From Gammaproteobacteria bacterium (GTDB lineage Bacteria > Pseudomonadota > Gammaproteobacteria > JBCCGL01), in assembly GCA_965277715.1 (NCBI GenBank), contig OZ255836.1, positions 4,111,632 through 4,175,631 of the forward strand: 64,000 bases of DNA, read 5' to 3'. This document shows positions 25,963-48,823 of this stretch, piece by piece (positions within the stretch are counted from its first letter, which is position 1; each line of letters starts with the position of its first letter). A program made the translations under genes and the position numbers. The notes beneath the pieces are model-generated. The model was given only the letters and a program-made list of their open reading frames with translations. It ran no database searches and was not told the origin of the DNA.

Positions 25963-25963
25963 T

Positions 25964-28900
25964 GTGCAGTTGAGACTTAGCGTGGCGTTACGCTACGGCT
26001 TACTATTGGGTTTGTGTGTGGGGTGGCTGCCGTTGGGGGTAGTGGCGGATGCTGTGCGACCGGCTTTGGTGCCTGCGGGTGAGCAGTTGGCTAGTGGTGA
26101 AGGGGCGTTGGATAGTTTGGCTCGGCGTTTGAATACACGCTTGGGCACTGTCCATCACGCGGCCTTCAGCCCGCAGGGAGATCGCATCGTTACGGCATCG
26201 AGTGATAACACTGCGCGGCTGTGGAATGCAGACAATGGCGAACTGATTGTGGTGCTTGAGGGGCATACGGATTGGGTTAATCACGCGGCTTTCAGCCCGC
26301 AGGGAGATCGAATCGTTACGGCATCGGATGATAATACTGCGCGGTTATGGAACGCAGACAATGGCGAACTGATTGCGGTGCTTGAGGGGCATACGGGCAG
26401 AGTTTATCACGCGGCCTTCAGCCCGCAGGGAGATCGCATCGTTACGGCATCGGGTGATGATACTGCGCGGCTGTGGAACGCAGACGATGGTGAACTGATC
26501 GATGTGCTTAAGGGGCATACGGATTGGGTTAATCACGCGGCTTTCAGTCCACAGGGAGATCGAATCGTTACGGCATCGGATGATAATACTGCGCGGTTAT
26601 GGAACGCAGACAATGGCGAACTGATTGCGGTGCTTGAGGGGCATACGGGCAGAGTTTATCACGCGGCCTTCAGCCCGCAGGGAGATCGCATCGTTACGGC
26701 ATCGGGTGATGATACTGCGCGGCTGTGGAACGCAGACGATGGTGAACTGATCGATGTGCTTAAGGGGCATACGGATTGGGTTAATCACGCGGCTTTCAGT
26801 CCACAGGGAGATCGAATCGTTACGGCATCGGATGATAATACTGCGCGGTTATGGAACGCAGACAATGGCGAACTGATTGCGGTGCTTGAGGGGCATACGG
26901 GCAGAGTTTATCACGCGGCCTTCAGCCCGCAGGGAGATCGCATCGTTACGGCATCGGGTGATGATACTGCGCGGCTGTGGAACGCAGACGATGGTGAACT
27001 GATCGATGTGCTTAAGGGGCATACGGATTGGGTTAATCACGCGGCTTTCAGTCCACAGGGAGATCGAATCGTTACGGCATCGGATGATAATACTGCGCGG
27101 TTATGGAACGCAGACAATGGCGAACTGATTGCGGTGCTTGAGGGGCATACGGGCAGAGTTTATCACGCGGCCTTCAGCCCGCAGGGAGATCGCATCGTTA
27201 CGGCGTCGAGAGATAACACTGCGCGGCTGTGGAACGCGGGCGATGGCGAACTGATCGCGGTGCTTGAGGGGCATACGGGCAGAGTTTATCACGCGGCTTT
27301 CAGCCCGCAGGGAGATCGCATCGTTACGGCATCGAGAGATAACACTGCGCGGCTGTGGAATGCAGACAATGGCGAACTGATTGTGGTGCTTGAGGGGCAT
27401 ACGAGTTGGGTTTATCACGCGGCCTTCAGCCCGCAGGGAGATCGCATCGTTACGGCATCGAGAGATAACACTGCGCGGCTGTGGAATGCAGACAATGGCG
27501 AACTGATTGTGGTGCTTGAGGGGCATAGGAATAGGTTTTATCACGCGGCCTTCAGCCCGCAGGGAGATCGCATCGTTACGGTATCGGGTGATGATACTGC
27601 GCGGCTGTGGAATGCAGACGATGGTGAACTGATCGATGTGCTTAAGGGGCATACGGATTGGGTTAATCACGCGGCTTTCAGTCCACAGGGAGATCGAATC
27701 GTTACGGCATCGGGAGATAACACTGCGCGGCTGTGGAATGCAGACAATGGCGAACTGATTGTGGTGCTTGAGGGGCATAGGAATAGGGTTTCTCACGCGG
27801 CCTTCAGCCCGCAGGGAGATCGCATCGTTACGGCATCGGGTGATGATACTGCGCGGCTGTGGAATGCAGACAATGGCGAACTGATTGCGGTGCTTGAGGG
27901 GCATAGGAATAGGGTTTCTCACGCGGCCTTCAGCCCGCAGGGAGATCGTATCGTTACGGCATCTAGGGGTAAGACTGTGCGGCTGTGGAGCGCAGACGAT
28001 GGCGAACTGATCGCGGTGTTTGAGGGGCATACGGATCGGGTTACTCACGCAGCCTTCAGCCCGCAGGGTAATCGCATTGTCACCGCCTCATTCGATGGCA
28101 GTATAAGACTATGGGACACAGATACAGCTAAACCGCTACGGCTTATGGTGGCCACCAGCAACGGCCAATGGCTAAACTGCCAGGCGAACGGCCATTGCTT
28201 ACGCCACGACGATGGCACATTGTTTTGGCCGCCTCTACCTCCCCAGGCCACAGGCGGTAAACTGAGCCTGGAAAATCTGCCCGAGGCGACAATCGACACC
28301 TGTATGTCGCTGCCTTGCGAGCCACGCGACTTTGTTGTCGGGATTCGCAATACCGGCACCGCGCCACTCTATTGGCTACAAGTGGTCTCGGCAGAAAGCG
28401 GCCCTGTCTCACTGTCATTACCCCCACCGCCGTTACCGCCATTGCACCCCGATGATCATGTTGAGCTAAGCATACGCCTGGCCAGCGTAGCACCCACACA
28501 GCAACCCCAGCGCCAAAACACCAGTATAAAATTGGCTATTCGCCACGCCCATGGCGAATTACCAATAGACCTGCCAGTAACCGTGCGCACCCCAGAGATT
28601 ACTCTGCTGGAAGCCAGCCTGACAGAAAACCGCGAAACCATCGCAGTGCAGGTGAGTAACCACGGCGGGGTTTCACTATCCCAGGCGGTTGCAGAGGCCG
28701 CCATCAATGGCCAGGCGATACCCGGTAGCCTTAACCTTCCAGTGCTTCCGGGCAATATGTCGAAACCACAACAATTGGCTTTTACGGCGCCCGCAGATTT
28801 TAACTACCCGGACGACACTGAGTTCACTTTGCAGTTGCGCAACGCCAACTACCCCCATTATCAGTGGACACTCAAACACCCGCTCACCCTGCCCTGGCAA

Positions 28901-30586
28901 CTCTATACCTTGCTGGCAGCACTGATTCTGGTGCTTGGCGGGCTGGCCTGGTTTGTCGGTGTGCGCTGGCATCCACTGGTGCGGCTGGCGGTTAATCAAG
29001 GCCCCACCGCGCTGGCACTGCCCCAGCTGGGCCAGGCGCGCCGCTGGCTGCAACGCGCCCGCCTGTGGCGGGATACCGTGCAGGCGCAAGGGCTGGCAGC
29101 GCGCTGGCAAAGCGCCGAGGCGTTTTTGGCCTGCCCTGACCCGGTGCAGCAAATCGAACAACTGGCCGGGCGTTTACAGGCCGAGGTGTTGCCCGCGAAT
29201 GAGGCTACCCCCACCTGGCTGGCCACCTTGCGTCTTAACGAAGGCTTTATCCTGCGCTTACCACAGTGCACGGTGGCGCTGCCCGGCGCCGATCATTCTA
29301 TCGACCAGATCACCACTCAGCTACGCCGTTGCGAAGGTGTATGCCTGCTAATCACCACAGACCCGGATCAACAGGCCGCGCTGCGCGCCGACCGCCAGGC
29401 CACCTGGGTGATACCGGACAACCAGGCTTTGGTGCGCCTATGGCTGGCAGCGGCGGATAAGGTTAACGATCAACTGGCCTCTATTATCGCCGAGCAGGTC
29501 GATACCCGTAGCCTTTCGCCCTGGCGCACTGGTCACGGTATGGAGGATATGACGATGTTTTTTGGCCGCGACCAGTTACTGCGCGATATCCTCGAACGAC
29601 CACCGCGTAACTACCTGCTGGTTGGGGCGCGGCAGCTGGGTAAAACCAGTCTGCTGCAAAAACTGCAACATCTCTGCGATCAGCGCGATACATTGCGTGG
29701 CTTTAAAATCTCGCTGGGCTCCGGCCATTTTGCCATCGATTTGCAACGCATCGCTGGGCAGTTGGCGTTGGCGCGCAACGCCTCTTTGCCAGACATTCTC
29801 ACTGCGTTGGCGCACCCGCCCGCCGGGATCCATCACTGGTTGTTAGTCGACGAGGCCGACGAGCTGGCGGGCAACCACACCCCGGAAAATGCAGCGGTTT
29901 TAGATCAAATGCGCAACCTGAGCGCCGAGGGCCGCTGTCATTTTATCCTCGCCGGGTTTTGGGGCCTGTACCGTGAGGCGATACTGGAGTACCAATCAAA
30001 ACTGAAAAACTTTGGTGACCTGCTGCTGTTGGATGCTCTGGAAGACAAGGCCAGCCGGGCGCTACTCACCCGGCCTATGCACGCCTTGCAGATTCACTAC
30101 CAGGATGACACCCTGGTAACGCGGATTCTGCACGAGACCGGCGGGCGCACTAATTTGCTGGCTATTGTCGCCGATGACCTGGTGCGCCGACTTGGCAATC
30201 AACGCCGGGTGATTACCGATGAAGATATCAGCGAAGTGCTAAACGATGCGGTGTTTCAGGATCGCCTGCTCGACTGGAAAACACTATCAGGGAATATACT
30301 AGATCAAATACTGGTATACGCTAGTATCGACCTCAACCCACTAGAGCAGGGTTTTACCGAGGCTGAATTATGGCAACGGTTGGATGAATTGGGAGACGAA
30401 GTATCCGATGATGCCGTACAAAATTCGCTGATTCGTTTACGGCTGGGATTTATCATCAAACGCGTTGGTGGACGTTACTACTATCGCGTGCCCGTGCAAG
30501 TACAGCAAATCCTCGACAGCGAACCGGAGCGTGCCTTGCGTAGATTGCTCAATTCTTTAGTCGGTGATATATCGAAACAATGTTGA
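25964..30586 (+). CDS. giant multidomain protein: signal peptide or anchor, then about 16 WD40 repeats, beta-rich linker domains, a single TM helix, then a cytoplasmic STAND/AAA_16-like P-loop NTPase with a C-terminal winged-helix
   Basis: N-terminal hydrophobic leader (LRYGLLLGLCVGWLPLGVVA). 16 units of a 42-aa WD40-like blade (HAAFSPQGDRIVTASxDNTARLWNADxGELIAVLEGHTxxV). A TM helix (LYTLLAALILVLGGLAWFVGVRW, nt ~28897-28970). Then FFGRDQLLRDILERPPRNYLLVGARQLGKTSLL, which is the FxGR-x(n)-GxxxxGKT/S pattern typical of STAND/AAA_16 ATPases. Walker B HHWLLVDEADEL. C-terminal wH-like RLRLGFIIKRVGGRYYYRVP. GTG start coupled to the CHAT gene. Confidence 0.75.
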   Translation: MQLRLSVALRYGLLLGLCVGWLPLGVVADAVRPALVPAGEQLASGEGALDSLARRLNTRLGTVHHAAFSPQGDRIVTASSDNTARLWNADNGELIVVLEGHTDWVNHAAFSPQGDRIVTASDDNTARLWNADNGELIAVLEGHTGRVYHAAFSPQGDRIVTASGDDTARLWNADDGELIDVLKGHTDWVNHAAFSPQGDRIVTASDDNTARLWNADNGELIAVLEGHTGRVYHAAFSPQGDRIVTASGDDTARLWNADDGELIDVLKGHTDWVNHAAFSPQGDRIVTASDDNTARLWNADNGELIAVLEGHTGRVYHAAFSPQGDRIVTASGDDTARLWNADDGELIDVLKGHTDWVNHAAFSPQGDRIVTASDDNTARLWNADNGELIAVLEGHTGRVYHAAFSPQGDRIVTASRDNTARLWNAGDGELIAVLEGHTGRVYHAAFSPQGDRIVTASRDNTARLWNADNGELIVVLEGHTSWVYHAAFSPQGDRIVTASRDNTARLWNADNGELIVVLEGHRNRFYHAAFSPQGDRIVTVSGDDTARLWNADDGELIDVLKGHTDWVNHAAFSPQGDRIVTASGDNTARLWNADNGELIVVLEGHRNRVSHAAFSPQGDRIVTASGDDTARLWNADNGELIAVLEGHRNRVSHAAFSPQGDRIVTASRGKTVRLWSADDGELIAVFEGHTDRVTHAAFSPQGNRIVTASFDGSIRLWDTDTAKPLRLMVATSNGQWLNCQANGHCLRHDDGTLFWPPLPPQATGGKLSLENLPEATIDTCMSLPCEPRDFVVGIRNTGTAPLYWLQVVSAESGPVSLSLPPPPLPPLHPDDHVELSIRLASVAPTQQPQRQNTSIKLAIRHAHGELPIDLPVTVRTPEITLLEASLTENRETIAVQVSNHGGVSLSQAVAEAAINGQAIPGSLNLPVLPGNMSKPQQLAFTAPADFNYPDDTEFTLQLRNANYPHYQWTLKHPLTLPWQLYTLLAALILVLGGLAWFVGVRWHPLVRLAVNQGPTALALPQLGQARRWLQRARLWRDTVQAQGLAARWQSAEAFLACPDPVQQIEQLAGRLQAEVLPANEATPTWLATLRLNEGFILRLPQCTVALPGADHSIDQITTQLRRCEGVCLLITTDPDQQAALRADRQATWVIPDNQALVRLWLAAADKVNDQLASIIAEQVDTRSLSPWRTGHGMEDMTMFFGRDQLLRDILERPPRNYLLVGARQLGKTSLLQKLQHLCDQRDTLRGFKISLGSGHFAIDLQRIAGQLALARNASLPDILTALAHPPAGIHHWLLVDEADELAGNHTPENAAVLDQMRNLSAEGRCHFILAGFWGLYREAILEYQSKLKNFGDLLLLDALEDKASRALLTRPMHALQIHYQDDTLVTRILHETGGRTNLLAIVADDLVRRLGNQRRVITDEDISEVLNDAVFQDRLLDWKTLSGNILDQILVYASIDLNPLEQGFTEAELWQRLDELGDEVSDDAVQNSLIRLRLGFIIKRVGGRYYYRVPVQVQQILDSEPERALRRLLNSLVGDISKQC
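26140..28120 (+). repeat. intragenic tandem DNA repeats (126-bp WD40 unit; 252-bp super-unit) with near-100% nucleotide identity
   Basis: At least three perfect 252-bp copies lie between about 26280 and 27100. The minus-strand ORFs 26345-26536, 26597-26788 and 26849-27040 have identical translations at exact 252-bp spacing. About 10 further, slightly diverged 126-bp units follow. Confidence 0.9.
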
Positions 30587-30708
30587 GGAGCGCATAACGG
30601 TAGACTGTAAGCGCCCTTAAATCAGCCTCTATTCCAAGGTAATGTCCAAAACGACATTCCAAGGTAGCAAGGCCTCTATCTTTTCAAGGAAAAAAAAAGA
30701 AAAAAAAA

Positions 30709-30806
30709 GGGGTCAAGGCAGTTATTTCCTATATTTCTTGCTGGAAATCACTGTTTTTATCCGTATTAGTCGTTGTATGGTGAATAATAAGCCTGACCCC
30801 CTTGCT
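30709..30806. mobile_element. MITE-like ~95-bp repeat element, copy 1 (short GGGGTCA terminal inverted repeats)
   Basis: AAAAAGGGGTCAAGGCAGTTATTTCCTATATTTCTTGCTGGAAA(T/C)CACTGTTTTTATCCGTATTAGTCGTTGTATGGTGAATAATAAGCCTGACCCCCTTGCTTTT. It recurs almost identically at 34784 and 37611. Its ends are inverted (GGGGTCAAG ... CCTGACCCC). Confidence 0.55.
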
Positions 30807-31187
30807 TTTAGGCTACGCAAAATTAGCCACAGCAGAAATACAATACCAGCGAGCTGGATGGTTATACCGAGAACAGCATTCATAAGGGGTTTCTCCAGAT
30901 TACGCCGGGGGAACCTCCTTCCCTGCCGGGAAGAAAAACCCCGGCAGGGTGGTTAAAACAAAATAAAAACAAAAAATAATGGGCTGCTTCTTTTGAGAGA
31001 CCAGCTATCTCTTAGGGCATACCTATCGGCAACGCCCTGACACTGACCGGGGTCAGCAATAAGTAGAAACCAAGATAGCGTGTCCTGCTAGAACGGGCAG
31101 TGAAGAAGATGGCAGTTTTTAACACCTATCGCACCGCCACAAAAATACACTGGTACTACCCTGATATTTTTATCTGGTGGCAATGTT

Positions 31188-31772
31188 ATGGCATCTAAAA
31201 CCCCCTATTCTCGTCCAACCTTTGAACAATCTTTTACGCTGCACAGCCTTCAGGCCCAGCGGGTGGTGCAACGGGTGCTGAGGCGTACCGTACACGCCTT
31301 ATACGGCATTGAAGTAATTTTACGGATTATTGGGGATGAAAAAGCCATTGACGAAGTGGACGGCATTATCCGGGACGCGGTAACTCATGCCGCCAGCGAA
31401 CTGGAGCAGGAACAAAGCCGACTGAATCTTTTAATGGAAGAAAACGGCATTGATGAGACGCCAAACTATACCCACCCGTACACCTTTACGGCCAAAATCA
31501 GTTCGCCGCAAATCGGTCAGTTTATAGGACTGATACGCAAACTGGATGCCGTGATGATTGCCCGTGATACGCTTTGGTTAACCGGGGTTATCAGCAATCA
31601 ACAGAGGGCAGATGGGAATTTTGATGGGCAGCAAAAACTTACCCTGCTGGCACGGCATATTATTGATATTGAAACGCGAGCAAGGCAATCGGCGAATAGC
31701 CAAGGTAAGCAGGAAGAAGTGGAGGCGGTGGTGCCGGTGATGGAGGAAGTACTGGAAGCTGAAGAAGATTGA
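31188..31772 (+). CDS. hypothetical protein (island-encoded)
   Basis: 194-aa ORF in the AT-rich island. It has an acidic C-terminus (EEVEAVVPVMEEVLEAEED). No motif I can name with confidence. Confidence 0.35.
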   Translation: MASKTPYSRPTFEQSFTLHSLQAQRVVQRVLRRTVHALYGIEVILRIIGDEKAIDEVDGIIRDAVTHAASELEQEQSRLNLLMEENGIDETPNYTHPYTFTAKISSPQIGQFIGLIRKLDAVMIARDTLWLTGVISNQQRADGNFDGQQKLTLLARHIIDIETRARQSANSQGKQEEVEAVVPVMEEVLEAEED

Positions 31773-31937
31773 GAAGATTAAATAACCACCAACTAAAGTC
31801 GGTAAGTCCAATATTGGCTAAGCCGCCATCAGACTTCACATGTCCAATTAACTATCCAGTGGTTGACCTGCATTACCGGAAGGGACTCTCATCTATTGGA
31901 GATTTTGACTTGATTGCATACCCATTTATTTGATCGA

Positions 31938-33122
31938 TTATTCAGCGGTACAGCTAATCGTTTTGTTAGTCCACGGAGCACCATTCCAAGAATCTTCGAC
32001 TCCTGGAGAAACTCGGCTTAATAGTTCATCAGATACTTCGCCGTCTCCACCACATTGCTCAAAACTAGTCTGCACACCATGTACGAATAGGCTTGCAGAA
32101 TCTCCACAAAGCACTGGCTTATCAATTGATGTCAGCACTGAGCTAGAGAGAAGTACTAACCTGTACACAGGGTTCAGATAGGCATCGAAACCTGGAATGA
32201 TATACTGTCCAGCTGGCAATTGAGCAAAGCGTCGAAAACCGGTAAGGGTTTGAAACGCTATCATGTCAGAAGCAGCCCGCTGTGCAAATGTTTCTAATAC
32301 ACCGTCATCCTCCCAATCTGTAATTGGGTTTGAATGAAGCGCTTCGACTTGACGGGCAGCACATCTGTCCGCATTGATTTCATTCGGGTTTGGATTGGAT
32401 GCACAAAACAAATCGTTCGAGGTTTGGAGAGCCAGGATGTGTTGAAACAAGCCAGACGTTTCCATACGCGACTTTGTGCTTACGGGGCACTTTTCGTTGT
32501 TAATGTGATACGTCTCATGACCCACCAGTGAGGCCAGATTGAACGCCATTATGCGATTTTGAATAACTGCTATTCTGCGTAGATTAGCTGAAACATTGTT
32601 CTGCTCAATGCCTTGAAATTGATTGTCAATGAACGTGCGAAGTGGCTCTTGCATCGCCGCAACGTTATCTGCATGAACGGTCTCGTCTGCATATCCGAAC
32701 GCCAGTTTGACAGGACGGTCAAACGCAATTCGAAATGACTCATAGTCTGGGTAAGCGCCTTGAACAAATTGTATTGCATACCAGCTTGCTACCATGTTCA
32801 TTCGCTGGAAGGCTGATTGGCGACAGAACATCTTCCCAGGTATTGCTGCGCAAACTGTATCAGGCATGCTGTCATTGCAAACTGCTCTTCGGATTTTCAA
32901 ATCCAGTTTTTCACTACCACCTTTTAGAATCGAAGTTAATTGAATCATACTTATGTGTTGCCAATTCGACCCGCCAAATGTTTCCTCGTGACAGATTGAA
33001 AGTTCAATCTCTGCATTTACCCGTTGAACTGACAATATTTGCACAATCGCAACAAAAAGCAGAATTGCTCTTGAGCTAATCATTTCAGTGCACCAATTAA
33101 TGTGTCGAGTACCCCCTCGCAA
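31938..33122 (-). CDS. hypothetical secreted protein with an HExxH zinc-metallopeptidase-like motif
   Basis: 394 aa. N-terminal signal peptide (ILLFVAIVQILSVQRVNA). HETYH motif (LASLVGHETYHINNEKC). Low GC. Confidence 0.35.
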   Translation of the reverse strand: MRGGTRHINWCTEMISSRAILLFVAIVQILSVQRVNAEIELSICHEETFGGSNWQHISMIQLTSILKGGSEKLDLKIRRAVCNDSMPDTVCAAIPGKMFCRQSAFQRMNMVASWYAIQFVQGAYPDYESFRIAFDRPVKLAFGYADETVHADNVAAMQEPLRTFIDNQFQGIEQNNVSANLRRIAVIQNRIMAFNLASLVGHETYHINNEKCPVSTKSRMETSGLFQHILALQTSNDLFCASNPNPNEINADRCAARQVEALHSNPITDWEDDGVLETFAQRAASDMIAFQTLTGFRRFAQLPAGQYIIPGFDAYLNPVYRLVLLSSSVLTSIDKPVLCGDSASLFVHGVQTSFEQCGGDGEVSDELLSRVSPGVEDSWNGAPWTNKTISCTAE

Positions 33123-33451
33123 TTACCAACATGTATCTGGACGGCGCTTGTCAGCCCCTGTAAGTCTTGATTTGGCAATTGGCTTAAGCTTTTTGTTCGT
33201 TTTAAGCTGGTCAGACAGTTTTCAACCGGGCCGACTTGTAAGCTTGCCAATTTGCTTACTCTTTCTCCACCTGGAGGAAATGCAACAGCAAGAGTCACCC
33301 CAGCAGTTAAAAACGCCGATAGAATTGTCCATACATAGGTTCGCTTCTTCCACTTGTCCTCAAGGGCCAGCTTCAGTTTCTCCAACTCAAATTTGGCATT
33401 TTCTAAGTCAGGTTGATTGTCCATCAGCTTAAGGTTCTTAGGTCTGACCAC
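33080..33451 (-). CDS. hypothetical small membrane-anchored protein
   Basis: 123 aa with an N-terminal coiled/charged region and then one TM helix (VWTILSAFLTAGVTLAVAF). It overlaps the neighbouring genes in an operon-like arrangement. Confidence 0.3.
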   Translation of the reverse strand: MVRPKNLKLMDNQPDLENAKFELEKLKLALEDKWKKRTYVWTILSAFLTAGVTLAVAFPPGGERVSKLASLQVGPVENCLTSLKRTKSLSQLPNQDLQGLTSAVQIHVGNCEGVLDTLIGALK

Positions 33452-33983
33452 ATTTTAGTGCCGCATCCAGGTTATCCTGCAAACCTGCTATATCCCAGGT
33501 TTCCAGCAAATCTCTAATAAGAGTAGGATCAAGCTCTGTGCCATCTTTTTTTAGGTAATACACCGACGTACGAGCACGTTCACGATTGATATCCACCTTA
33601 TAAGTTAATTCAAAAACTCCTTCGATATTATCACCGGTTGCGTGAAAAAAAATACTGCCAAGGGTTTTCTCGCGCCTCGGCAAAACCAAACCCTTCAAAT
33701 TCGTCCAGGCCACAAAAACGCTTTCTATTTTGTCTGTACAGTCAGCCAACTTTGGGATAAAACGGTTTTGAAAATAGGATGTCTGATCAAAGCCACCGCC
33801 GATACCTGGATCTTCAGGATCAGGTGCTGCGTCCAGTGATGAGACCGCCCCGATACTTGTCAACGCAGTTTTTGAGGTATTATCAGCAAGTGCAAGACCT
33901 ACATTGGCAAGTAAGCTGATAGTCAACACGACCAGAAGACAAGGAATGTTCAACATAGATATTTTTTCAATTCGTTTGAACAA
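33438..33983 (-). CDS. hypothetical secreted protein
   Basis: 181 aa with a signal peptide (MLNIPCLLVVLTISLLANVGLALA). First gene of a three-gene minus-strand cluster. Confidence 0.35.
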   Translation of the reverse strand: MFKRIEKISMLNIPCLLVVLTISLLANVGLALADNTSKTALTSIGAVSSLDAAPDPEDPGIGGGFDQTSYFQNRFIPKLADCTDKIESVFVAWTNLKGLVLPRREKTLGSIFFHATGDNIEGVFELTYKVDINRERARTSVYYLKKDGTELDPTLIRDLLETWDIAGLQDNLDAALKCGQT

Positions 33984-34369
33984 CTAATTATAACTTAACT
34001 ATTTTGTTTCTGTAGGCCCAAATTATTAACATGTGTTGTAAAAACCAAAGTTCGGTAGACGGTAAGTATACAGTTGTATTTAACCCTAATTCTTAGATAG
34101 GAACGTTTAAAGGTTATTGGGAAATGCTTTAATGGCCTGTGACGATTTGGTTTGCTATATTGTGTATAAATATACTTTTAGCTTTGCTATACCATCAAAA
34201 TTAAATTGTTTACTCAACAATATGGTTCCCGATGTGCTCGTACTTCAGGTGTGGCTGACCAAGCATGGAAAAATAAATATGCAAAGAGTTTACAGCAACA
34301 AGTGATTGTTTTCATTCAATTACGAGGCGAGCCATATGTTAATCATTTGCGTTTTGAAGGCTGAAAGTT

Positions 34370-35105
34370 GTGACTGATTTCTTGTTTAAGCACAGCACCA
34401 CGGTTGGCCAGCCCGGCTATTTTTTGCATGGTTTGTTATTAGACGGAAACCCCACATTCAGTGAAGGCGTGTACAGGCTTAACCATTGGGCCGTGCGCTT
34501 AGGCCGCGATGCGCATTCAGATGAAGCCCGCATGGCTTCTTTGCACGAAATGTATCATGCGACATTGAACGACAGTACTGCATACGGAACGTTAATGCAT
34601 GTGGTGGGATTATTTTGCCGCACCTATCCAGAAGAGAACCAATGGCCGAATCTTTTGCAGGCGCTTATCGACTCAGCGTTGCGCTGCCATGAAACCTATG
34701 CAACCTACGCGTCTGTATTTGTTGTTGGTAAAGGCTCGCCGAACAGAGCTGTGCTCGAACAGTATCCTGAAAGTCATTAAAAGGGGTCAAGACAGTTATT
34801 TCCTATATTTCTTGCTGGAAACCACTGTTTTTATCCGTATTAGTCGTTGTATGGTGAATAATAAGCCTGACCCCCTTGCTTTTCAAATTATGCGGGCGCA
34901 TGCGAATCTCACTGGTGCAGATGCTGATGGTTGGCTGACATCTCGTCAGGTTGCTGGATATCATCATGACGTATTTGCAACATATGGATTACCTGCCAGG
35001 ACTTTTGGTGGAACGCCAATAACAAGCGCTTTGTGGGAGTCAAACATTAATTTTGGAGGTTTTTTGGGCTACCGATATTGGTGTGATGGATGTGCTTCTC
35101 AATGA
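34370..35105 (+). pseudogene. hypothetical HExxH-motif gene disrupted by a MITE insertion
   Basis: The ORF 34370-34780 (contains LHEMYHATLND) stops exactly at the MITE border. The reading frame resumes after the element in a different frame (34884-35105: QIMRAHANLTGADADGW...). A ~97-bp insertion accounts for the +1 frame change. Confidence 0.45.
34784..34878. mobile_element. MITE-like ~95-bp repeat element, copy 2 (inserted in a coding sequence)
   Basis: Near-identical to copies 1 and 3 (GGGGTCAAGACAGTTATTTCC ... AAGCCTGACCCCCTTGC). Confidence 0.55.
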
Positions 35106-35806
35106 ATGGGCGTAGTTTACTGATTAGTTGTTTTTTTGTATTGCTTACAGCTATTTCGGTTGGCACGTATGCTTTTGACGTAGAAGAAATGAAACTGACA
35201 CTTGGTGAGCACCAATTAAGTATTCCAAAAAGCAATATTATTGATCCCAATGTACCGTTCTGGCTGCGTTTAATTCCGGGTTTAGCTCCCAGCACTGGAG
35301 AGATTCTGCTCTTGATAGATGCAGAAGATATTGCTAATCAGGTCGAGGGGTATCAAGCGTATGATGGCGAGTTAAAAAACAATATACATTTGCGTATATC
35401 AGTGCTTGATGTGAACGCGTTAAATCAAATTTTAGACCCTCAAATGCATGTCTATAGCGATGCTTGGTATGGGCGGGGATTATTGGAAGGTCGTACTATA
35501 GAGCTGCATGAGAAGTCTAGATTTTATAAGCTGTACAGAGGAGATGACACATTTTGGACAGCTGTAAAAATTTCACCTGATGCTTCTCAGCCTATACCTG
35601 ACGATCCTTTTGCTTTTTGGGTTGCAAGTTGTCATAAAGGAGAAGCTCCATTGACGAAATCAGGCTTTATAACAAGTTGTCTCACCAAGATGGTATATGA
35701 CAATCTTCTTTTGGATTTTAGTTTAAATGGAATAAATTTAGGTGTAGTAGATGGTGTGAAGACTATGCTGTCTCGCCAGCTTTTATTATGGAAAAATCAG
35801 AAATAA
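35090..35806 (+). CDS. hypothetical secreted protein
   Basis: 238-aa ORF with an N-terminal signal sequence (LLISCFFVLLTAISVGTYA). AT-rich codon usage. No known motif. Confidence 0.35.
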   Translation: MCFSMNGRSLLISCFFVLLTAISVGTYAFDVEEMKLTLGEHQLSIPKSNIIDPNVPFWLRLIPGLAPSTGEILLLIDAEDIANQVEGYQAYDGELKNNIHLRISVLDVNALNQILDPQMHVYSDAWYGRGLLEGRTIELHEKSRFYKLYRGDDTFWTAVKISPDASQPIPDDPFAFWVASCHKGEAPLTKSGFITSCLTKMVYDNLLLDFSLNGINLGVVDGVKTMLSRQLLLWKNQK

Positions 35807-36042
35807 AAATAAACATTTAGTTGAATGTCAAAACTGAGTTCAAAATCCCTAGCGGCTTGCTAGGGCTTTTTTGCTTTTACTCTTCGCTAGTCAACACCAA
35901 ACACCCGTCCATCACTCTGACCTTCACTGGCGAATCAATCTCAAATCCCGCTTTGATTAACCAATGGCCTTTGAGGTGAATCTCGCCAATGGGTGTGCGC
36001 TGTCGGCAGTTCTGGCTGAAATAAAAGGAAAAGGGGTCAGGC

Positions 36043-37611
36043 TAGAATGGCACTTCCTTAAGCTCTAAGTACATGAAAAATATGGAAGTACTTTCATTGT
36101 AAATGACCTATTTCTGTTTTTTGGGATGGCCATATTTTTTAACAACACTTCTGGCCACGTCCCTTGGCTGCATCAATAAAGGATACGGTTTGGGTCTTCG
36201 TTTAACCACTCTTGGTTCAATACGCCCCGGTCGATTACCCACACAGTTTTCTGCAATCAACGCACATAGCGCCAACACCTTATCACTACCCAGAGGGCTA
36301 CCGCCTTTCTGATAACGATACGTTACCCAAATTTGTAACGTATGCTTAAAACTTATCTGTCGAGGCAGTATGTCCACTAGTAAGGCAGATTGCGCCATTA
36401 ATAAGCGAATAAGGTTGTAAGCTAATATGTGTACCCACATTTCCTTCTCAACCATTTCTGGCGTCTTACAACGGAAAGTGTGCATCTTCATTGTCGTTTT
36501 TATATGGCGTAAATCAAGTTCGACATGCCAGCGTTCTTTGTAGAGCTGTTTAAGCGCCTCTTTAGACGCCGATTTAACTGATAACAACGTTGTCACCAAC
36601 AGTTTTTTACCCACTTTCAGTTCACGTATAACCACTTCATCAGCAGCCGCTTCATAGGCTTCTTCGCTCATCCACTCTGGTCTCTTCTTGGGCTTTGTAT
36701 AACAAATCAGATGATCCTTCGATCCAAGCCTTTTGCCTTCTCGAAAATCTGTGGATTTACGCCGCGCACCATGCGGCTCAAATACACCGTCTACTCCTTG
36801 CTCTATAAGGTTTGCTAGAAAAAAATAACCCGCAAAATAGGCATCACCCACCACAATATCACCCGGTTTAAGCGCATTTTGTATTTTTCTCAATAACGTT
36901 TGCTCATCCGCTCCCTTACCTTTAAAAGGACCCATTGCCGCATCGAGAACACCACCACTGGCTAAACAAATAATTCCTACCCAGCGACAAAGAGGAAAAC
37001 CGATCCCCACTTGCTGGCCTGACTGTTGCGGATAAACTACCTGATTTTCAGGCGTATCGGGCATTGTCACAGTGGTGCCGTCAACCAATTTAACTGAACG
37101 CCCTTGCCAGTGCCAGTGACTGGCCGCTTCATTCGCCACACACTCGCCTGTACAACGGGCAAGCCCTGAGACGAGGGGGGTTGGCAGCCTTTGTCGCGCT
37201 TTACAATAACTCCCTGTATACGTATTACTCACTGATAAACCTTCACTTAATCGCTGTACAGCGAGTGTGTTGACAGCTTGTTGGCAGGACTGATCTGCAC
37301 TCATTGTTTGGTATAAAAACAGCGATAAGGTATCTAGAGGAGGATAGCGACGCGCTCGAAAATCCGGTTGTAATTCTTCCAGTTTCGTAAGTAACTGAGA
37401 GGATGTCAGCAAGTGATAAAAACTCAATGCATCCGAGGATTGAGCTCGGCTTTTGATGCGACGTTGAAGAATGTTGACTTTTACATTACTCTGCATGATG
37501 GCTGGTTCCTGTGGGATAAAGGGTATTTGTGTTGGCAACAAATAACCTACCATAGAACCAGCTTTTTTTGTAATTACTTCAAATACTTACAGCTTAAGGA
37601 AGTGCCATTCG
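36043..37611 (-). mobile_element. IS4-family insertion sequence (~1.57 kb) with ~20-bp terminal inverted repeats
   Basis: Left end GAATGGCACTTCCTTAAGCTCT (36043-) and right end AGCTTAAGGAAGTGCCATTC (-37611) are reverse complements of each other. The element encloses a single transposase gene. Confidence 0.7.
36108..37553 (-). CDS. IS4-family DDE transposase
   Basis: 481 aa colinear with IS4-type transposases (…DGTTVTMPDTPEN…, …LLRKIQNALKPGDIVVGDAYFAGY…, …YKERWHVELDLRHIKTTMKMH…LIRLLM…). Confidence 0.85.
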   Translation of the reverse strand: MVGYLLPTQIPFIPQEPAIMQSNVKVNILQRRIKSRAQSSDALSFYHLLTSSQLLTKLEELQPDFRARRYPPLDTLSLFLYQTMSADQSCQQAVNTLAVQRLSEGLSVSNTYTGSYCKARQRLPTPLVSGLARCTGECVANEAASHWHWQGRSVKLVDGTTVTMPDTPENQVVYPQQSGQQVGIGFPLCRWVGIICLASGGVLDAAMGPFKGKGADEQTLLRKIQNALKPGDIVVGDAYFAGYFFLANLIEQGVDGVFEPHGARRKSTDFREGKRLGSKDHLICYTKPKKRPEWMSEEAYEAAADEVVIRELKVGKKLLVTTLLSVKSASKEALKQLYKERWHVELDLRHIKTTMKMHTFRCKTPEMVEKEMWVHILAYNLIRLLMAQSALLVDILPRQISFKHTLQIWVTYRYQKGGSPLGSDKVLALCALIAENCVGNRPGRIEPRVVKRRPKPYPLLMQPRDVARSVVKKYGHPKKQK

Positions 37612-37706
37612 GGTCAAGGCAGTTATTTCCTATATTTCTTGCTGGAAACCACTGTTTTTATCCGTATTAGTCGTTGTATGGTGAATAATAAGCCTGACCC
37701 TCTTGC
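37611..37706. mobile_element. MITE-like ~95-bp repeat element, copy 3, abutting the IS4 right end
   Basis: GGGTCAAGGCAGTTATTTCCTATATTTCTTGCTGGAAACCACTG ... AAGCCTGACCCTCTTGC. It is followed by the short CCTCCCTTG x3 repeat. Confidence 0.55.
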
Positions 37707-37782
37707 CTCCCTTGCCTCCCTTGCTTTCTAATAGTAATCTCCAAAGTGCACACGGTGATAATCGGACTACACGCAGAGGAGG

Positions 37783-38310: not shown

Positions 38311-38582
38311 TATAACCTAAAAGGAAAATGTAGCGTACCGCTTTCTGATCGTATAAATTCCCAAATTATCGATCATAATATTTTTCAGTTTTTCGACGTT
38401 TTTGCCACACTCTGATCATAACAAAAAATATTTTTACCCTATTAAAATCTGACATTTTACCTATCTATATCATACCGGTACGATAACGTCGGCTGGCAAC
38501 GATACTCTCGTAGGCTGCTCTTTATGATGTCATGGGTTAATTTGTAACAGGGAGCACATAGCCTGACACAGGGGGTCAGGCT

Positions 38583-38864
38583 TTGTCTTATAACGCAAAA
38601 CTACCCCATGGTTGGGTAGATGTTGCGACATTTGCCCGCCTAAATCCTAAAATTAAAGGCGTGGGTACTAGTTTGTTTCAAGCCACTACGGACTTTGCAC
38701 GAGGTAAGGACTTTGAATATATCAATGCAACCATAAGAGCGGATAATACAGCAGGGCTTCATACTATTCCAAAATGGGGTTTGTCGATTATTCGGTCGCT
38801 AAAGATGTCCCTTTGCAGGACGGCACACCGGTTGATCGTATCTCTAAAAAATATAATTTGCTGA
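38583..38864 (+). pseudogene. possible C-terminal fragment of a GNAT-family acetyltransferase
   Basis: 93-aa ORF whose sequence resembles only the acetyl-CoA-binding distal half of GNAT enzymes (GVGTSLF ... YINATIRADN). There is no N-terminal half, and it sits in island context. Confidence 0.25.
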
Positions 38865-38894: not shown

Positions 38895-39356
38895 CTACTG
38901 CGAAAACTCACTTCGCTGCCTCACTGCTTTACGTAAATTTTTTAGTTTAGTTGAATTATGTTCTCTATACATAATCTCTGAACCATGCTCAAGCTCTTCA
39001 TAGATTGGCAGTAGTTCGGTTACACCTTCAAAAATCCATTGCACGGGAATTCCTTCAGACCCACCCTTGTATGGTTCTGTTTGATATTTAGCTTCTTCAG
39101 TAATTTTATCGTAAGCATCTTCTAAATTTTCTGCTTGGATGATTATTGTATTTTCCCAAGCCGTAAATCTTTTTTCTGGATCTTCGTTTCCCTGTTCTTC
39201 TAACGCTACAAAGCGAATTATGTAGGAAGCAACATACCATCCAACTGGGGAAATATTCTTATCACTCATGCTTATACCTAACGCTCGCGATTGTAATATC
39301 ACACCAAGGTTGGTCGCTGCAATATTATTGTCAGTTATATAGGGGGCAAGTATCAT
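38895..39356 (-). CDS. hypothetical protein
   Basis: 153-aa ORF at the edge of the AT-rich island. No assignable motif. Confidence 0.3.
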   Translation of the reverse strand: MILAPYITDNNIAATNLGVILQSRALGISMSDKNISPVGWYVASYIIRFVALEEQGNEDPEKRFTAWENTIIIQAENLEDAYDKITEEAKYQTEPYKGGSEGIPVQWIFEGVTELLPIYEELEHGSEIMYREHNSTKLKNLRKAVRQRSEFSQ

Positions 39357-39542
39357 ATTGAACGCTATAGATTAAATCACGTAAAATCGAAATAAAAGAG
39401 CTCGAATATATTTAATTTTTTAAAAAATATTTTCAGTAGAAATTTGTGTTACCACATTATCGTTATAACGCAGTGATGCTACTATGATCATAATATGGTT
39501 GAAAAACGCTGGTTTGTACAACAGTCGTTTGGTAAGTAACAT

Positions 39543-40703
39543 TTATTTATAAGGATCAGCCGCATCTCGCAAACCATCACCAAAAAAGTTAAACGCTAAA
39601 ATAATCAACACGACAGGCACTACGGGAAACATTAACCACGGGTACAGTGCGACTACATTGATATTTTGCGCTTCGTTGAGCAGCACGCCCCAACTGGTGA
39701 TCGGTGGTCGCAGGCCGAGGCCAAGGAAGCTCAAGGCGGTTTCACCGAGTATCATCGCCGGAATAGAGAGTGTCGCCGAGGCGATCAGGTGGCTCATAAA
39801 GCCGGGTAATAAATGGCGTCCAATAATCCGCCCCGGTTTTGCGCCCATCAGTTCAGCCGCTGTGCAGTAATCCTCCTCGCGCAATGCCAGTAGTTTGGAG
39901 CGAACGGCGCGTGCCAGCCCAGTCCAGTCGAGCATGGCGAGGATGACGGTGATGCCAAAGAAAATGAGAATCGGGCTCCAGTTGACGGGCAGTACCGCCG
40001 AGAGTGCCATCCACAGAGGCAGTTCAGGGAATGAGCGGATAATTTCTATACAGCGCTGCACACTCGCATCAACCCAGCCACCGTAGTAACCCGCCAACCC
40101 GCCAATCAGTATGCCGAAGGCAAAACTGATGAAGATGCCAACCAGGCCAATCGTCAATGAAATACGCGCACCATAGGTGATGCGGGAAAACATATCGCGC
40201 CCCAAACGGTCGGTACCCAGCAGAAAGAAGGTGCCGTTCTCTGGGGGACAGACGATATGGAAACTACCTTCAAACAGACCCCAGAACTGGTAGCTGTCGC
40301 CGCTGCAAAAAAACCGCAGAGGTTGCACGTCATTAGGCCTTTCTGGGTAGTTGCGTTTGAGAATTTCCATATCCAGTACGTAGTCACGCCCATAAACAAA
40401 GGGGCCGATAAATTCGCCATTGTGGAACAGGTGCACGCTTTGTGGCGGCGAGTAGATATAGTCGGTATTGCGTGTATGCAGGTTATATGGTGCGATAATT
40501 TCGCTAAATAATACCGAGCCGTAGTTGAGCGCGAGGATAATGCCGCAGATAACCGCCAGGCGGTGGCGTTTGAGTTTCCACCACATCAGCATCCATTGCG
40601 AGGCGAGGTAGTATTTTTCCTGTGCCGGTGTTAGCGATTCGATTGACTGCGGGTCAAAGGTCGCGCTGGACACATAGTGTTCTATACGGTCTTGTCGGCT
40701 CAT
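39543..40703 (-). CDS. peptide ABC transporter permease (YejE/OppC-like, BPD_transp_1)
   Basis: 386 aa, polytopic, with the permease EAA-like loop region (…ALREEDYCTAAELMGAKPGRIIGRHLLPG…). Last gene of a 4-gene minus-strand transporter operon. Confidence 0.7.
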   Translation of the reverse strand: MSRQDRIEHYVSSATFDPQSIESLTPAQEKYYLASQWMLMWWKLKRHRLAVICGIILALNYGSVLFSEIIAPYNLHTRNTDYIYSPPQSVHLFHNGEFIGPFVYGRDYVLDMEILKRNYPERPNDVQPLRFFCSGDSYQFWGLFEGSFHIVCPPENGTFFLLGTDRLGRDMFSRITYGARISLTIGLVGIFISFAFGILIGGLAGYYGGWVDASVQRCIEIIRSFPELPLWMALSAVLPVNWSPILIFFGITVILAMLDWTGLARAVRSKLLALREEDYCTAAELMGAKPGRIIGRHLLPGFMSHLIASATLSIPAMILGETALSFLGLGLRPPITSWGVLLNEAQNINVVALYPWLMFPVVPVVLIILAFNFFGDGLRDAADPYK

Positions 40704-41698
40704 TTCGCCAGGTCTCCCTGTAAACGGATGCGCGGATCAAGCAGGGCCAGCGCTATATCGGAAACCAGTACACCGAATACGGTGAGTACAGCGAGAAACA
40801 TCAGGAAGGAGCCCGCCAGGTACATATCCTGGCTTTGCAGCGCTGCCAATAGAATCGGCCCGGTGGTGGGAAGCGACATGACCACTGCGACGATCTCAGC
40901 ACCTGAGATTACAGTGGGCAGTAAATTGCCAATGTCGGCAATAAAGAAATTCAGCGATACCCGCAAAGGGTATTTCCTCAGTAGTTTACCCGGTGGCAGG
41001 CCTTTCGCCCGGCCCGTCACTACGTATTGTTTTTGCAGTTCGTCGAGCAGGTTGGCACGCAACCGGCGGATCATACCGGCGGTTCCCGAGGTGCCGATAA
41101 CAACGACTGGTATCCACAGGTGTTCCAGCACCGAGATTAGTTTGTCGACGCTCCACGGTGCATCGATGTACTCGGCTGCCATCAGGCCGCCAATCGAGGT
41201 GCCAAAATACACATTGGCAAAGTACAACATCACCAGTGCCAACAGAAAATTGGGTGTGGCCAGGCCGAGAAAACCCAATAGTGATAAACCGTAATCGCCC
41301 CAGCTATATTGGTGTGTCGCCGAGTAGATGCCAATCGGGAAAGCCACCGCCCAGGTGAATAGGATCGTGACGGCAGAAATCAGCACGGTGAGAAACAAGC
41401 GGTCACCGACGACATCGGTAACGGGCAGGTTGTATTCAAATGAGTAGCCAAAATCACCTTGCAGCATACCGGTGACCCAGAAAAAATATTGTTTGTAGAG
41501 TGGTTGATCCAGTCGGTATTGCTCGCGGAGAAAGGCGATTTTTTGTTCGTCGACAGACTCACCCTGGCTTTGCAGCTCGGCCATATAGCTTTCCAGGTAG
41601 TCACCCGGTGGCAATTGAATGATGACAAACACCAGTATGCTGATGACCAACAGCGTGGGGATCATCGTCAACAGACGACGAATAATATAGGTGGCCAT
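40700..41698 (-). CDS. peptide ABC transporter permease (YejB/OppB-like)
   Basis: Typical N-terminus ([34 protein letters not shown]) and permease motif (…TGRAKGLPPGKLLRKYPLR…). I place the start at the internal ATG (41698), which overlaps the SBP stop by 1 nt. The six-frame ORF extends to 41722. Confidence 0.7.
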   Translation of the reverse strand: MATYIIRRLLTMIPTLLVISILVFVIIQLPPGDYLESYMAELQSQGESVDEQKIAFLREQYRLDQPLYKQYFFWVTGMLQGDFGYSFEYNLPVTDVVGDRLFLTVLISAVTILFTWAVAFPIGIYSATHQYSWGDYGLSLLGFLGLATPNFLLALVMLYFANVYFGTSIGGLMAAEYIDAPWSVDKLISVLEHLWIPVVVIGTSGTAGMIRRLRANLLDELQKQYVVTGRAKGLPPGKLLRKYPLRVSLNFFIADIGNLLPTVISGAEIVAVVMSLPTTGPILLAALQSQDMYLAGSFLMFLAVLTVFGVLVSDIALALLDPRIRLQGDLAK

Positions 41699-43611
41699 TA
41701 GCGTCGTGCCTCGTCGAACCAAAAAGTATCGGGTTTATAAATACCAAAATAAGCGCCGGGTTCGATGTCGTAAAAACCCTGTTTTGGCACGTTGTGCAGG
41801 TGGTTATTCACCACCACCGGGTGTTGTACACCGGTGATGATGCCAATGCTGAATAATTGATCCCGGTGTATCGCCAGCATACGGTGCCATATGCGTTCAC
41901 GCTCCGCTACGGTGGCCGCCTGTCGCCATGCTTTGTTTAAACTCACCAGCTCTATAGCACCTGGCAGGTTGGGTGGTTCGCCACTTGCGCCGCTGCTCTC
42001 GTAGTATTGTCCCCATTTGGGCCACTGGTATTGGTATTTAGAGGTGGGTGCCAGATCCGCCGGACTGGAGTTGGGGGTTGGCAGGGCGTTAGCCAGGCCA
42101 GACCAGATCGACATAACCGCGTCGCCGGAAAAGATACGGTTGCGAAATACTTCGCGGGTTGAGGGGATGCTGTAGAGCTTGATACCGACCTTTAGCCAAC
42201 TGTCGTGGATCAATTCGAGTACATCGGTTTGCTCGGTGCTCTCGCCAGCGGTTTGAATCAGAATTTCCAATGGGCGACCATCTGGCATCAGGCGCACACC
42301 GCGATCATCGCGTTCGGTGAGACCGAGTTCGTCGAGTAGGGCGTTGGCTTGTGCCAGGTCGTATTCGATCCAGGATTTTTGGTATTCCGGTTTAAACATT
42401 GGGCATTCAGGTAATACTGTGTTGTTGCTTTCCATCACCAGGCGAAAATAGACTACCTGATTGATTTCGTAGCGGTGAATGGCCAGGGATAGCGCCCGCC
42501 TGAAACGCACATCGCGTAGCAGGGTGCGGATGACTTCATCGTTGGTGTTCAGGTTGGGAAACAGTGCAATGTGCGAGCCTTTGGCCGTTTTCCACAGGCG
42601 CACATCAAAGTTGTTGCGCTTGGCCGATTGCTTAAGAAAGGTGTAGTTGTCCATGCGCAGATAGCGGGCCTGTAGGTCTGCCTCACCTGCACCGGCTTTG
42701 GCTGGTACCAGTTTACTGGAGGCAATGTTGATGGCGATGCTGTCGATATACGGCAATTGACGGCCATTACTGTCGATGCGGTGGTAGTAGGGGTTGCGCT
42801 TGAAGATAAACCGTTCTGATGGTGGATAGGTGGTATTCACCCAGGGTTGCAGTGTGGGTAAGTCCGGGTTGGTGGCTTTGTAGGGACGGTCATGGTTGAC
42901 GTGTACCCCCATCCAGTTGCGCGCTTTGTACTGCTCAATCAGTTCGGCTATGCGGGCCTCACTTTGGTAGCGTTTGTGAAATTGGCGCAGGTAGTGGGCG
43001 GGCTTGTAAATGTATAACGGGCGGGGGGCTGCCAATGCCGGTAGAAAAAACGGGTTTGGTTGCGACCAGCTATAGCGCACTGTGTATGCGTCGATAAATT
43101 CGACTGTGGGTGCTTCACCGTCGATTAATAATTGTTTGGGTGGCCCGCCTTTGGCAAGCTCCGGGTCGTTGGCGATGTCTTCCCAGTAGTAGCGAAAATC
43201 ATCGCTGGTGAATGGGTGTCCGTCTGACCAGCGGTGGCCTTTGCGCAGGTGCAGAGTAAAAATGCGCTCCTGCTCAATGTCGATGCTTTCCAGAATATCG
43301 GCTTGCAAGGTCAAGTCAGGGGTGTAACCCACCAGGCGTGCGTAGCCATAAATCACAATTTGGCGGATGTCTTTCTGTTTGCCCATCAGTAAGCGCATTT
43401 GCCCACCGTGCTTACCGGGTTTGAATTCACCTTCGAAGGTCACTAGCTGCGCCTGCTTGGGGATGCGTTCACCGACCGGTGGCAACTCACCACTGTCCAC
43501 CTGTTGTTGCAGTGATGGGGTTTCGATGAGTGTCGCAGCGCCTGCCGGTTTATACACGGTGCCAGGCAATACGGTACTGGCGACGATCAGGGTAATAGCT
43601 AGGTACTTCAC
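41698..43611 (-). CDS. extracellular solute-binding protein, family 5 (YejA/MbnE-like oligopeptide-binding protein)
   Basis: ~637 aa with a signal peptide ([19 protein letters not shown]…) and the large size typical of SBP_bac_5. A likely GTG start at 43611 overlaps the ATPase stop (GTGA). The six-frame ORF extends to 43635. Confidence 0.65.
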
Positions 43612-48728: not shown

Positions 48729-48823
48729 GCTTACCTATTATTGCTATTTGTTCCATCAATTATGCTTTATAGCCCCATACGTTTGTTGCTTCACCCATCG
48801 TTCTGCCGTGCTATTATTCGCCG

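Follow-up and report, generated by a model that had tools for sequence, protein, structure and literature searches.

A small palindromic repeat dispersed in a sponge-associated gammaproteobacterium and the IS4-subgroup insertion sequence at its terminus

What kind of element is a noncoding sequence of about 100 bp that occurs three times, in near-identical form, within 7 kb of one bacterial chromosome? The question is raised by a 64,000-bp stretch (GenBank assembly GCA_965277715.1, contig OZ255836.1, positions 4,111,632 to 4,175,631), referred to below as the window, of the 4.29-Mb chromosome of a sponge-associated gammaproteobacterium. A first-pass annotation of the window had described the three sequences as a family of elements resembling MITEs (miniature transposable elements bearing inverted repeats), with GGGGTCA terminal inverted repeats. 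Our analysis shows that the repeat constitutes a new, orphan family of small palindromic dispersed repeats that is MITE-like in the broad sense only. The explanation that we favor, with a probability of about 0.5, is a young, lineage-restricted, nonautonomous dispersed repeat, an imperfect palindrome with a 93-bp core, that was moved in trans. Sharp common boundaries, unrelated flanks, near-identity of the copies, and occurrence in a single lineage together indicate a discrete unit that was recently copied to new places.

Results and Discussion

Three near-identical copies with common boundaries

The three near-identical copies claimed by the first-pass annotation were all recovered, each on the plus strand, and are 97.8% identical to one another over a 93-bp core that runs from GGGGTCA to TGACCCCC. 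A 38-mer from the left part of the repeat and a 30-mer from the right part each matched the window three times with at most one mismatch (no matches were expected from shuffled sequences), and a repeat finder returned the same three sites, at spacings of 4074 and 2827 bp. When the copies were aligned together with their flanks, similarity extended from AAAAG-GGGGTCA to TGACCCCC-TTGCTTTT, and the flanks beyond these points were unrelated. The edges common to copies 1 and 2 are AAAAG on the left and CTTGCTTTT on the right, which gives a unit of about 105 bp including its A-rich and T-rich edges. AAAAG precedes GGGGTCA at all four intact left ends.

The sites given by the first-pass annotation were correct, and their exact ends were revised to 30705 to 30809 (copy 1), 34779 to 34883 (copy 2), and 37611 to 37728 (copy 3). 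Copy 1, which reads AAAAG-GGGGTCAAGGCAG...GCCTGACCCCC-TTGCTTTT, lies 120 bp past the stop of a WD40/NTPase gene, at the left edge of a low-GC region, and is preceded by two units of GAAAAAAAAA. The left end of copy 2 adjoins a truncated gene for a protein with an HExxH motif. Copy 3 starts only at 37611 because the end of an insertion sequence (IS) takes the place of AAAAG and the first G, and it extends to about 37728 because its right end holds three tandem C(T/C)C(CC)TTGC units, compared with one in the other copies, the two extra units being CTCCCTTGC.

Copies outside the window

Copies outside the window were sought with peptides from the open frames of the element, which were concatenated and compared with a protein collection. 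Three proteins were matched (P0018, P0019, and P0020), and all three are spurious open reading frames (ORFs) read through the repeat. P0018 corresponds to the annotated ORF that runs through copy 2. P0020, a 117-amino-acid (aa) fragment of a Phage_base_V (gpV) protein, has an N-terminal part that the window does not encode; its gene, like that of P0141, is on the 4,294,796-bp chromosome to which the window proteins belong. P0019 is encoded on a 1953-bp sponge metagenome contig (L020), and a second sponge metagenome contig (L101), which was reached through a cluster mate of P0020, carries the repeat after P2-like tail genes (gpS and then a truncated gpV). The 4.29-Mb chromosome encodes, without any residue changed, the 139-aa protein whose gene lies beside the repeat in L020. 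Given this neighbor and the gpV copy, the organism has at least five copies, in four separate places. The five copies compared here are the three in the window and those in L020 and L101, and five is a lower bound for the genome. Over the core, all five known copies are 95.7 to 97.8% identical, with six variable columns, five of which are transitions.

The first-pass annotation had held that the repeat would be a local segmental duplication if no further genomic copies existed and careful alignment revealed no structure of terminal inverted repeats or target-site duplications. Copies are present at the gpV locus and at a locus encoding an M23-peptidase toxin domain, and the repeat is thus a dispersed family and no local duplication. 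No match to the repeat was obtained by BLAST in plasmid, phage, or Escherichia coli genome collections, Rfam searches at gathering and permissive thresholds gave only noise and no family match, and JGI metagenomes and IMG/VR contained no 20-mer of the repeat. The pattern of the termini gave 16 single hits without internal similarity among 185,579 species genomes, about the number expected by chance according to our own rough estimate; this collection evidently lacks the source genome, whose own copies fit the pattern and were not returned. A profile built from the copies was compared with the window and with all fetched loci and detected no diverged copies, and there were no copies in the 54 kb of core DNA in the window. 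In the collections searched, the repeat is private to one sponge-associated bacterium or lineage.

Termini, predicted fold, and coding content

The termini, GGGGTCA(A)GGC on the left and GCCTGACCCC on the right, are inverted with respect to each other, with one extra A on the left, and are extended by AAAAG and CTTTT. Alignment of the two 50-nt ends scored 23.5, compared with 13.6 ± 3.6 for shuffled sequences (z of about 2.8). The signal came from the outer 19 nt or so, and the inner ends were unrelated. The inverted termini described earlier are real but short, with a core of 10 to 11 nt and one insertion or deletion.

RNA structure prediction, which the first-pass annotation had called for, gave a hairpin whose fold was better than those of shuffled sequences on each strand (z of −2.9 to −3.6); for the DNA fold, the z values were −2.0 to −2.5. 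The consensus fold of the five copies was one long imperfect hairpin with 35 pairs, about one-fourth of which were G-U wobbles, and folds of single sequences gave a three-way junction of similar energy. The only part common to all fold predictions was the closing stem of 10 pairs, which is G+C rich (GGGGTCA.GGC with GCC.TGACCCC) and encloses an A+T-rich interior. Three substitutions in predicted pairs keep the pair through a G-U wobble and two break it, numbers that are too small to carry meaning. A run of A residues precedes the stem and a T-rich run follows it, and each strand ends in U-rich sequence. On the basis of the modeled stem and U-rich sequence, the repeat would probably act in RNA as a weak two-way terminator or a 3'-end stabilizer, and a noncanonical role as a terminator or insulator is plausible.

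Six-frame translation revealed no frame that was consistently open across the copies, and flanking ORFs entered the repeat in different frames. A coding reading was dropped because the small ORFs on the minus strand also enter in different frames.

Gene fragments at the junctions

Four of the five left junctions adjoin gene fragments, and the other halves of these genes are not on the far side of the repeat. The ORF at 34370 to 34780 (plus strand), which the first-pass annotation regarded as interrupted by one of the copies, does end at copy 2, but the junction is a truncation, and the rest of the gene is absent. The ORF is a 136-aa 5' gene fragment with an HEMYH motif, its homolog P0017 has 351 aa (57% identity), homology at the DNA level ends about 12 bp before the repeat, and neither the remainder of the gene nor its neighbor gene was found anywhere in the window. 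In L101, gpV ends at about residue 86 and is followed by the repeat. In L020, 75 nt from the start of the M23-peptidase toxin domain, which is encoded just upstream, are present as a duplicate; this duplicate breaks off right after GGTAACTAT, and the repeat follows it. Because these left junctions adjoin truncated genes without their other halves, the copies mark rearrangement breakpoints and not clean insertions.

The fourth of these fragments, a remnant of a SymE-type type I toxin gene (35877 to 36041, minus strand; Pfam positions 21 to 53 of 54; E value, 5.6e-15), has neither a start codon nor an N terminus; it is cut off by the partial terminus and the IS described below, which its truncated end faces. 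Similarity between the right flanks of copy 1 and the L101 copy, where small hydrophobic ORFs are found, was considered and had no BLAST support. L020 has a polymorphic-toxin-like layout at 129 to 1754, in which the C-terminal part of a large protein ends in the M23-peptidase domain; this protein is followed by the 139-aa protein, whose N terminus resembles a lipoprotein signal by eye, and then by the orphan 75-nt duplicate.

An IS4-subgroup insertion sequence at the repeat terminus

The IS that adjoins copy 3 is 1566 bp long (36045 to 37610, minus strand), with a transposase ORF at 36108 to 37553. The transposase, which has 462 aa in its annotated form, matched DDE_Tnp_1 (PF01609; E value, 1.5e-19), and at least 10 distinct variants of it are present in the genome. 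The IS ends, GAATGGCACTTCCTTAAGC, are 33-nt inverted repeats with 91% complementarity. Members of the IS4 subgroup are 1400 to 1650 bp long, with ends of the form -AATR--------WTW and a 10- to 13-bp target direct repeat (Table 1 of De Palmenaer et al. 2008, PMC2266710). The ends GAATGGCACTTCCTTAAG fit this form, the length is within the range, and the transposase is encoded by a single ORF; on these sequence features, the IS is assigned to the IS4 subgroup.

As the first-pass annotation had stated, one copy of the repeat is the target of this IS: no base separates the IS end at 37610 from GGGTCAAGG of copy 3, and the IS is thus seated at the second G of GGGGTCA in that terminus. A partial terminus, AAAAGGAAAAGGGGTCAGGCTA (36023 to 36044, plus strand), lies directly to the left of the IS and fits the outer part of either repeat terminus equally well. 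The 11-mers that flank the IS, GGGTCAGGCTA on the left and GGGTCAAGGCA on the right, both start with GGGTCA and then differ, and there is no 10- to 13-bp target direct repeat. These differing flanks suggest that two terminus-inserted copies of the IS may have recombined or that an IS-mediated adjacent deletion may have taken place.

Relatives of the IS in other organisms have 61 to 67% identity, lengths of 1553 to 1558 bp, and the same ends. Three of them are bordered by 11-bp duplications, namely, GGGTCTTACCC in L104, GGCTCTGACCC in L109, and one with a single mismatch in L108, and each of these duplications is located at a small hairpin's tip, with A/T runs on either side. The target rule for the lineage was drawn from L104, L106 to L109, and L112: GG[GC]TC was found at −11 in all six independent insertions and again at +1 in five of them, with GACTC at this position in L106. 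A “spectacular apparent insertion specificity” in target arms has already been noted for some IS4-subgroup elements (PMC2266710). L108 and L109 have a left flank in common and different right flanks.

The first-pass annotation had also proposed a search for a cognate transposon with the same termini as the repeat. None is present in the window, where the sole DDE IS ends in GAATGGCACTTCC, unlike the repeat.

Short tandem duplications, hairpins, and palindromes

Short tandem partial duplications, referred to here as stutters, were found at the ends of the repeat. Within the window, they are represented by the doubled unit before copy 1 and the three right-end units of copy 3. The left end in L020 has the stutter GACAAAAGGGGTCT / GACAAAAGT / GACAAAAGGGGTCAAGG, and L101 has two units of AAAGAAAAGCAA, of which the chromosomal version (P0020) has one. 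Related ISs in other organisms also have stutters, made up of A-rich sequence and GGGGTC, right where they are inserted (L106, L107, L112, and L109, the last with five to six units of 16 nt). In unrelated metagenome loci totaling 764 kb, a stutter was present at only 2 of 1592 GGGTC sites. Several insertions of related ISs adjoin tandem arrays of 13- to 17-nt A-rich-GGGGTC units.

Since stutters occur both at the repeat ends and at the insertion sites of related ISs, A-tract-GGGGTC hairpin modules with stutters could represent a conserved class of landing pads for one widespread IS4-subgroup lineage in several unrelated bacteria, a reading that we put forward with considerable doubt. The stutters would then be a by-product of IS or module processing, e.g., of repeated staggered cutting and repair at the hairpin base, and the IS would be coupled to the 100-bp repeat as one system instead of being its neighbor by chance.

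A short hairpin, AGCCTGAC-ACAGGGG-GTCAGGCT, is located at 38559 to 38583 (plus strand) and is followed by T-rich sequence. A stretch of 14 nt within it (AGGGGGTCAGGCTT) is identical to part of the right terminus of the repeat in inverted form, and the hairpin scores as terminator-like. Palindromes of the form CTGAC-N-GTCAG are located at 31037 to 31056 (CTGACACTGACCGGGGTCAG, plus strand), at 34935 to 34949 (CTGAC-ATCTC-GTCAG, plus strand, 52 bp to the right of copy 2), and at 38563 to 38579, within the above-mentioned hairpin. All three palindromes of the type CTGAC-N(2-15)-GTCAG in the 64-kb window are inside the 10-kb low-GC region, in which about 0.13 would be expected by chance according to our own estimate.

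Mobility of the repeat and alternative explanations

In the explanation that we favor, the repeat would have spread as a discrete unit by means of an enzyme supplied in trans. This enzyme would either make no target duplication or have made duplications that were all split by later rearrangement. A DDE-type MITE in which every duplication has been split is possible because at least three copies are at breakpoints, and an HUH single-strand mechanism would account for the absent duplication, the constant AAAAG, and the common orientation. Two effects are evident from the sequence itself. The repeat terminus, an A tract followed by GGGTCA, is the seat of the resident IS4-subgroup IS, relatives of which cut with an 11-bp stagger at the tips of GGSTC...CCC hairpins with A/T runs on either side. 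The copies and the ISs within them are located at rearrangement breakpoints, with most copies now adjoining gene fragments.

Several results weigh against this explanation. The four copies for which both flanks are available have no target-site duplication of 2 bp or more at any boundary tried. Movement was not seen directly, as no empty site was recovered; for the island, no empty site could be defined because relatives of the neighboring permease (87 to 89% aa identity) lose synteny at the end of that gene. The inverted repeat is only about 10 to 19 nt long and imperfect, with one indel, and the five copies showed no covariation, their variation (six variable columns) being too low. A terminator scan did not call the repeat, the enclosed loop of about 70 nt being too long. 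In addition, the window encodes no candidate transposase with the ends of the repeat and no Y1- or RAYT-like ORF, the latter according to the queries used.

With regard to the definition of DDE-type prokaryotic MITEs (PMC10969869), the repeat is small (93 to 105 bp) and has no transposase gene, and its copies are dispersed with unrelated flanks in the window and at the gpV and M23-toxin loci. Target-site duplications were absent from the four copies with both flanks, and the ends are not shared with the only DDE IS in the window. The MITE-like label thus holds for a small, noncoding, near-identical, and dispersed sequence with inverted termini, but not for target-site duplication, for ends in common with an IS, or for the length of the inverted repeat.

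A single-strand (HUH/Y1) element, i.e., a palindrome-associated derivative of IS200/IS605 or a REPIN-like doublet mobilized by a RAYT, is a rather unlikely alternative to an element mobilized by other means. The IS200/IS605-derived class is characterized by subterminal hairpins, a constant sequence of 4 to 5 nt 5' of the left end, the lack of inverted repeats and duplications, and a Y1 TnpA partner. Single-strand elements insert 3' of a fixed short target, which here would be AAAAG, without duplication and with strand bias, and the lack of target duplications, the presence of the three window copies on one strand, the AAAAG at four of four intact left ends, and the predicted hairpin, with internal hairpins in the single-sequence folds, are all consistent with it. 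However, no Y1 or RAYT-like ORF is present in the window, and the missing other halves of the truncated genes would be left unexplained. The termini are GGGGTCA and not a GTAG-type REP head, and 54 kb of core DNA is free of copies, unlike the situation for genome-wide REPs; on these grounds and for want of a RAYT-like ORF in the window, assignment to the REP/REPIN class was rejected. It is unlikely that the repeat is instead a module that functions as RNA or as a terminator, comparable to the pneumococcal SPRITE and kept for transcript termination or stability and spread mainly by recombination with accessory DNA. The G+C-rich closing stem placed between an A run and a T-rich run, the U-rich end on each strand, the retention of pairing through G-U wobbles by three of the five substitutions in predicted pairs, and the simple terminator-like hairpin made from the same arm sequence at 38559 to 38583 would fit such a module. 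Nevertheless, a stem that encloses about 70 nt is a noncanonical terminator and was not called by the consensus scan, the L101 copy is without the CTTGCTTTT tail, no Rfam family matches, and no shared upstream promoter is apparent, the left flanks being unrelated. Moreover, the unrelated flanks on both sides would require a mobility step anyway.

Site-specific recombination at cassette boundaries of an accretion island, with GCCTGAC/GTCAGGC half-sites recognized by a recombinase and direct repeats bracketing segments of 4.1 and 2.8 kb, is improbable. This scenario would be in keeping with three direct repeats confined to a low-GC ORFan region that starts at copy 1, with the break in homology to relatives exactly at the repeat, and with the CTGAC-N-GTCAG palindromes, of which the island has three and the rest of the window none. 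However, the window is without an integrase or recombinase gene, the presumed cassettes hold gene fragments, and further copies are located in a prophage tail gene and a toxin locus. Integron attC sites were rejected because the termini, GTCA(A)GGC...GCCTGAC, have the opposite polarity and no AAC/GTT, and hence no R''/R' cores (RYYYAAC...GTTRRRY), and because the window encodes no integrase. A Tn3-family-derived miniature element (TIME) is very improbable. The termini start with GGGGTC like Tn3-family inverted repeats, the sequence ACGACTAAT near position 30 to 36 of the right end faintly resembles the inner ACGCTAAG of the Tn21 and Tn4430 repeats, and the IS4-family element IS231A is said to favor Tn4430 ends. 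Against this, there is no inverted repeat of about 38 bp that starts with GGGG and ends with ...TAAG and no 5-bp duplication, the inner ends are mutually unrelated, and scores against the repeats of Tn3, Tn21, Tn4430, and Tn1000 were low, with only GGGGTC in common. Finally, local segmental duplication without mobility, which might have been suspected from three copies within 7 kb in one orientation, is ruled out by flanks that are unrelated immediately beyond the 105 bp and by two more copies in unrelated loci.

Comparison with known systems

Nothing suggests a new kind of mechanism, and the repeat is selfish DNA of an already familiar type. The combination of QMITE2 and IS1111 in Coxiella burnetii (PMC5896051 and PMC10969869) is similar in that a small palindromic dispersed repeat of a pseudogene-rich, host-associated gammaproteobacterium is both the specific landing site of a resident IS and a recombination substrate. 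It differs in that IS1111 belongs to the IS110 family and recognizes a GTAG REP-like palindrome, whereas the IS described here is a DDE element of the IS4 subgroup with an 11-bp stagger at GGSTC, and in that full-length QMITE has direct and inverted repeats, whereas the present repeat is without a duplication. The Correia/NEMIS repeats of Neisseria and the enterobacterial ERIC sequences are likewise noncoding repeats of about 100 to 150 bp that form long hairpins, are located by or in genes, and can act in RNA. Correia elements number in the hundreds and are marked by inverted repeats of 26 bp and a duplicated TA; in comparison with these families, the present repeat has imperfect inverted repeats of about 10 to 19 nt and no duplication and is known from accessory low-GC DNA only. 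SPRITE-like repeats share with it the small size, the dispersal, the terminator-like stem with a T run, the lack of a known mobilizing enzyme, and clustering with other repeats. They are not related to it in sequence, and in the present repeat the stem encloses about 70 nt, A/T runs lie on both sides, and the terminator role is predicted.

REPINs and BIMEs are similar as hairpin-forming doublets of inverted motifs of about 100 bp, without target duplication, that are targeted by ISs. They differ from the present repeat, which has no GTAG head, no RAYT in sight, and no spread through the core intergenic DNA of the window and whose interior is weakly self-complementary in DNA, many of the predicted pairs being G-U. 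IS231A reportedly favors Tn4430 ends and GGG(N)5CCC targets. It resembles the IS described here as a member of the IS4 family that duplicates about 11 bp and strongly prefers G-rich...C-rich sites flanked by A/T tracts, among them the GGGG ends of a different mobile element. It differs in belonging to the IS231 subgroup and in having a Tn3-family target, whereas the present case involves the IS4 subgroup, a 100-bp orphan repeat, and nonidentical flanking 11-mers.

The pairing described here is one more case of an IS specialized on a small repeat; it concentrates rearrangements in accessory DNA and may help to drive genome erosion in host-associated bacteria. The repeat is unannotated and marks pseudogene junctions, and its recognition improves the annotation of this symbiont genome. 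In addition, the GGSTC/11-bp preference over six independent insertions provides a usable and testable rule for the IS lineage.

Genomic setting

The window consists of core chromosome with a G+C content of about 52%, including cell-wall, flagellar, and peptide ABC transporter genes and mfd, and of a low-GC region (35 to 50% G+C) from about 30.6 to 39.5 kb that holds all three copies. Each of the low-GC ORFs that were looked up was the sole member of its own 90%-identity cluster among about 15 billion proteins. Besides the IS transposase, the only complete ORF of the low-GC region with a Pfam match is a DUF4288 ORF (38895 to 39356). No integrase or recombinase is encoded in the window, and its only transposase-like genes are that of the IS4-family element and one for a PDDEXK_2 protein. 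We take the latter “transposase” (PD-(D/E)XK nuclease family; 48824 to 49717) to be Rpn/YhgA-like; its gene is part of the core DNA and lies about 9 kb to the right of the low-GC region. The window has no tRNA or tmRNA genes, and a duplicated tRNA gene end left by island integration was therefore ruled out.

A contig from run DRR248315 (L017) is 99.2% identical to the window from 39430 to 48871 and ends at 39430, near the right edge of the low-GC region, a position at which strains may differ or the assembly may simply have broken off in A+T-rich DNA. In the gap just after the gene for a FleQ-like regulator (21540 to 22997), a 47-bp unit is repeated 7.9 times in tandem with 99% matching (23031 to 23403); the array is probably noncoding because its period is not a multiple of 3. 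At 24493 to 30586, the gene for a protein of 489 aa with a CHAT domain comes directly before that for a protein of 1540 aa. The latter has 16 near-identical WD40 repeats of 126 bp (42 aa), which are 85 to 96% identical in DNA, and a C-terminal region that is NTPase-like by eye, the Pfam matches shown being to WD40/beta-propeller families only. The pair of CHAT and WD40 proteins looks like a caspase-like conflict or signaling module.

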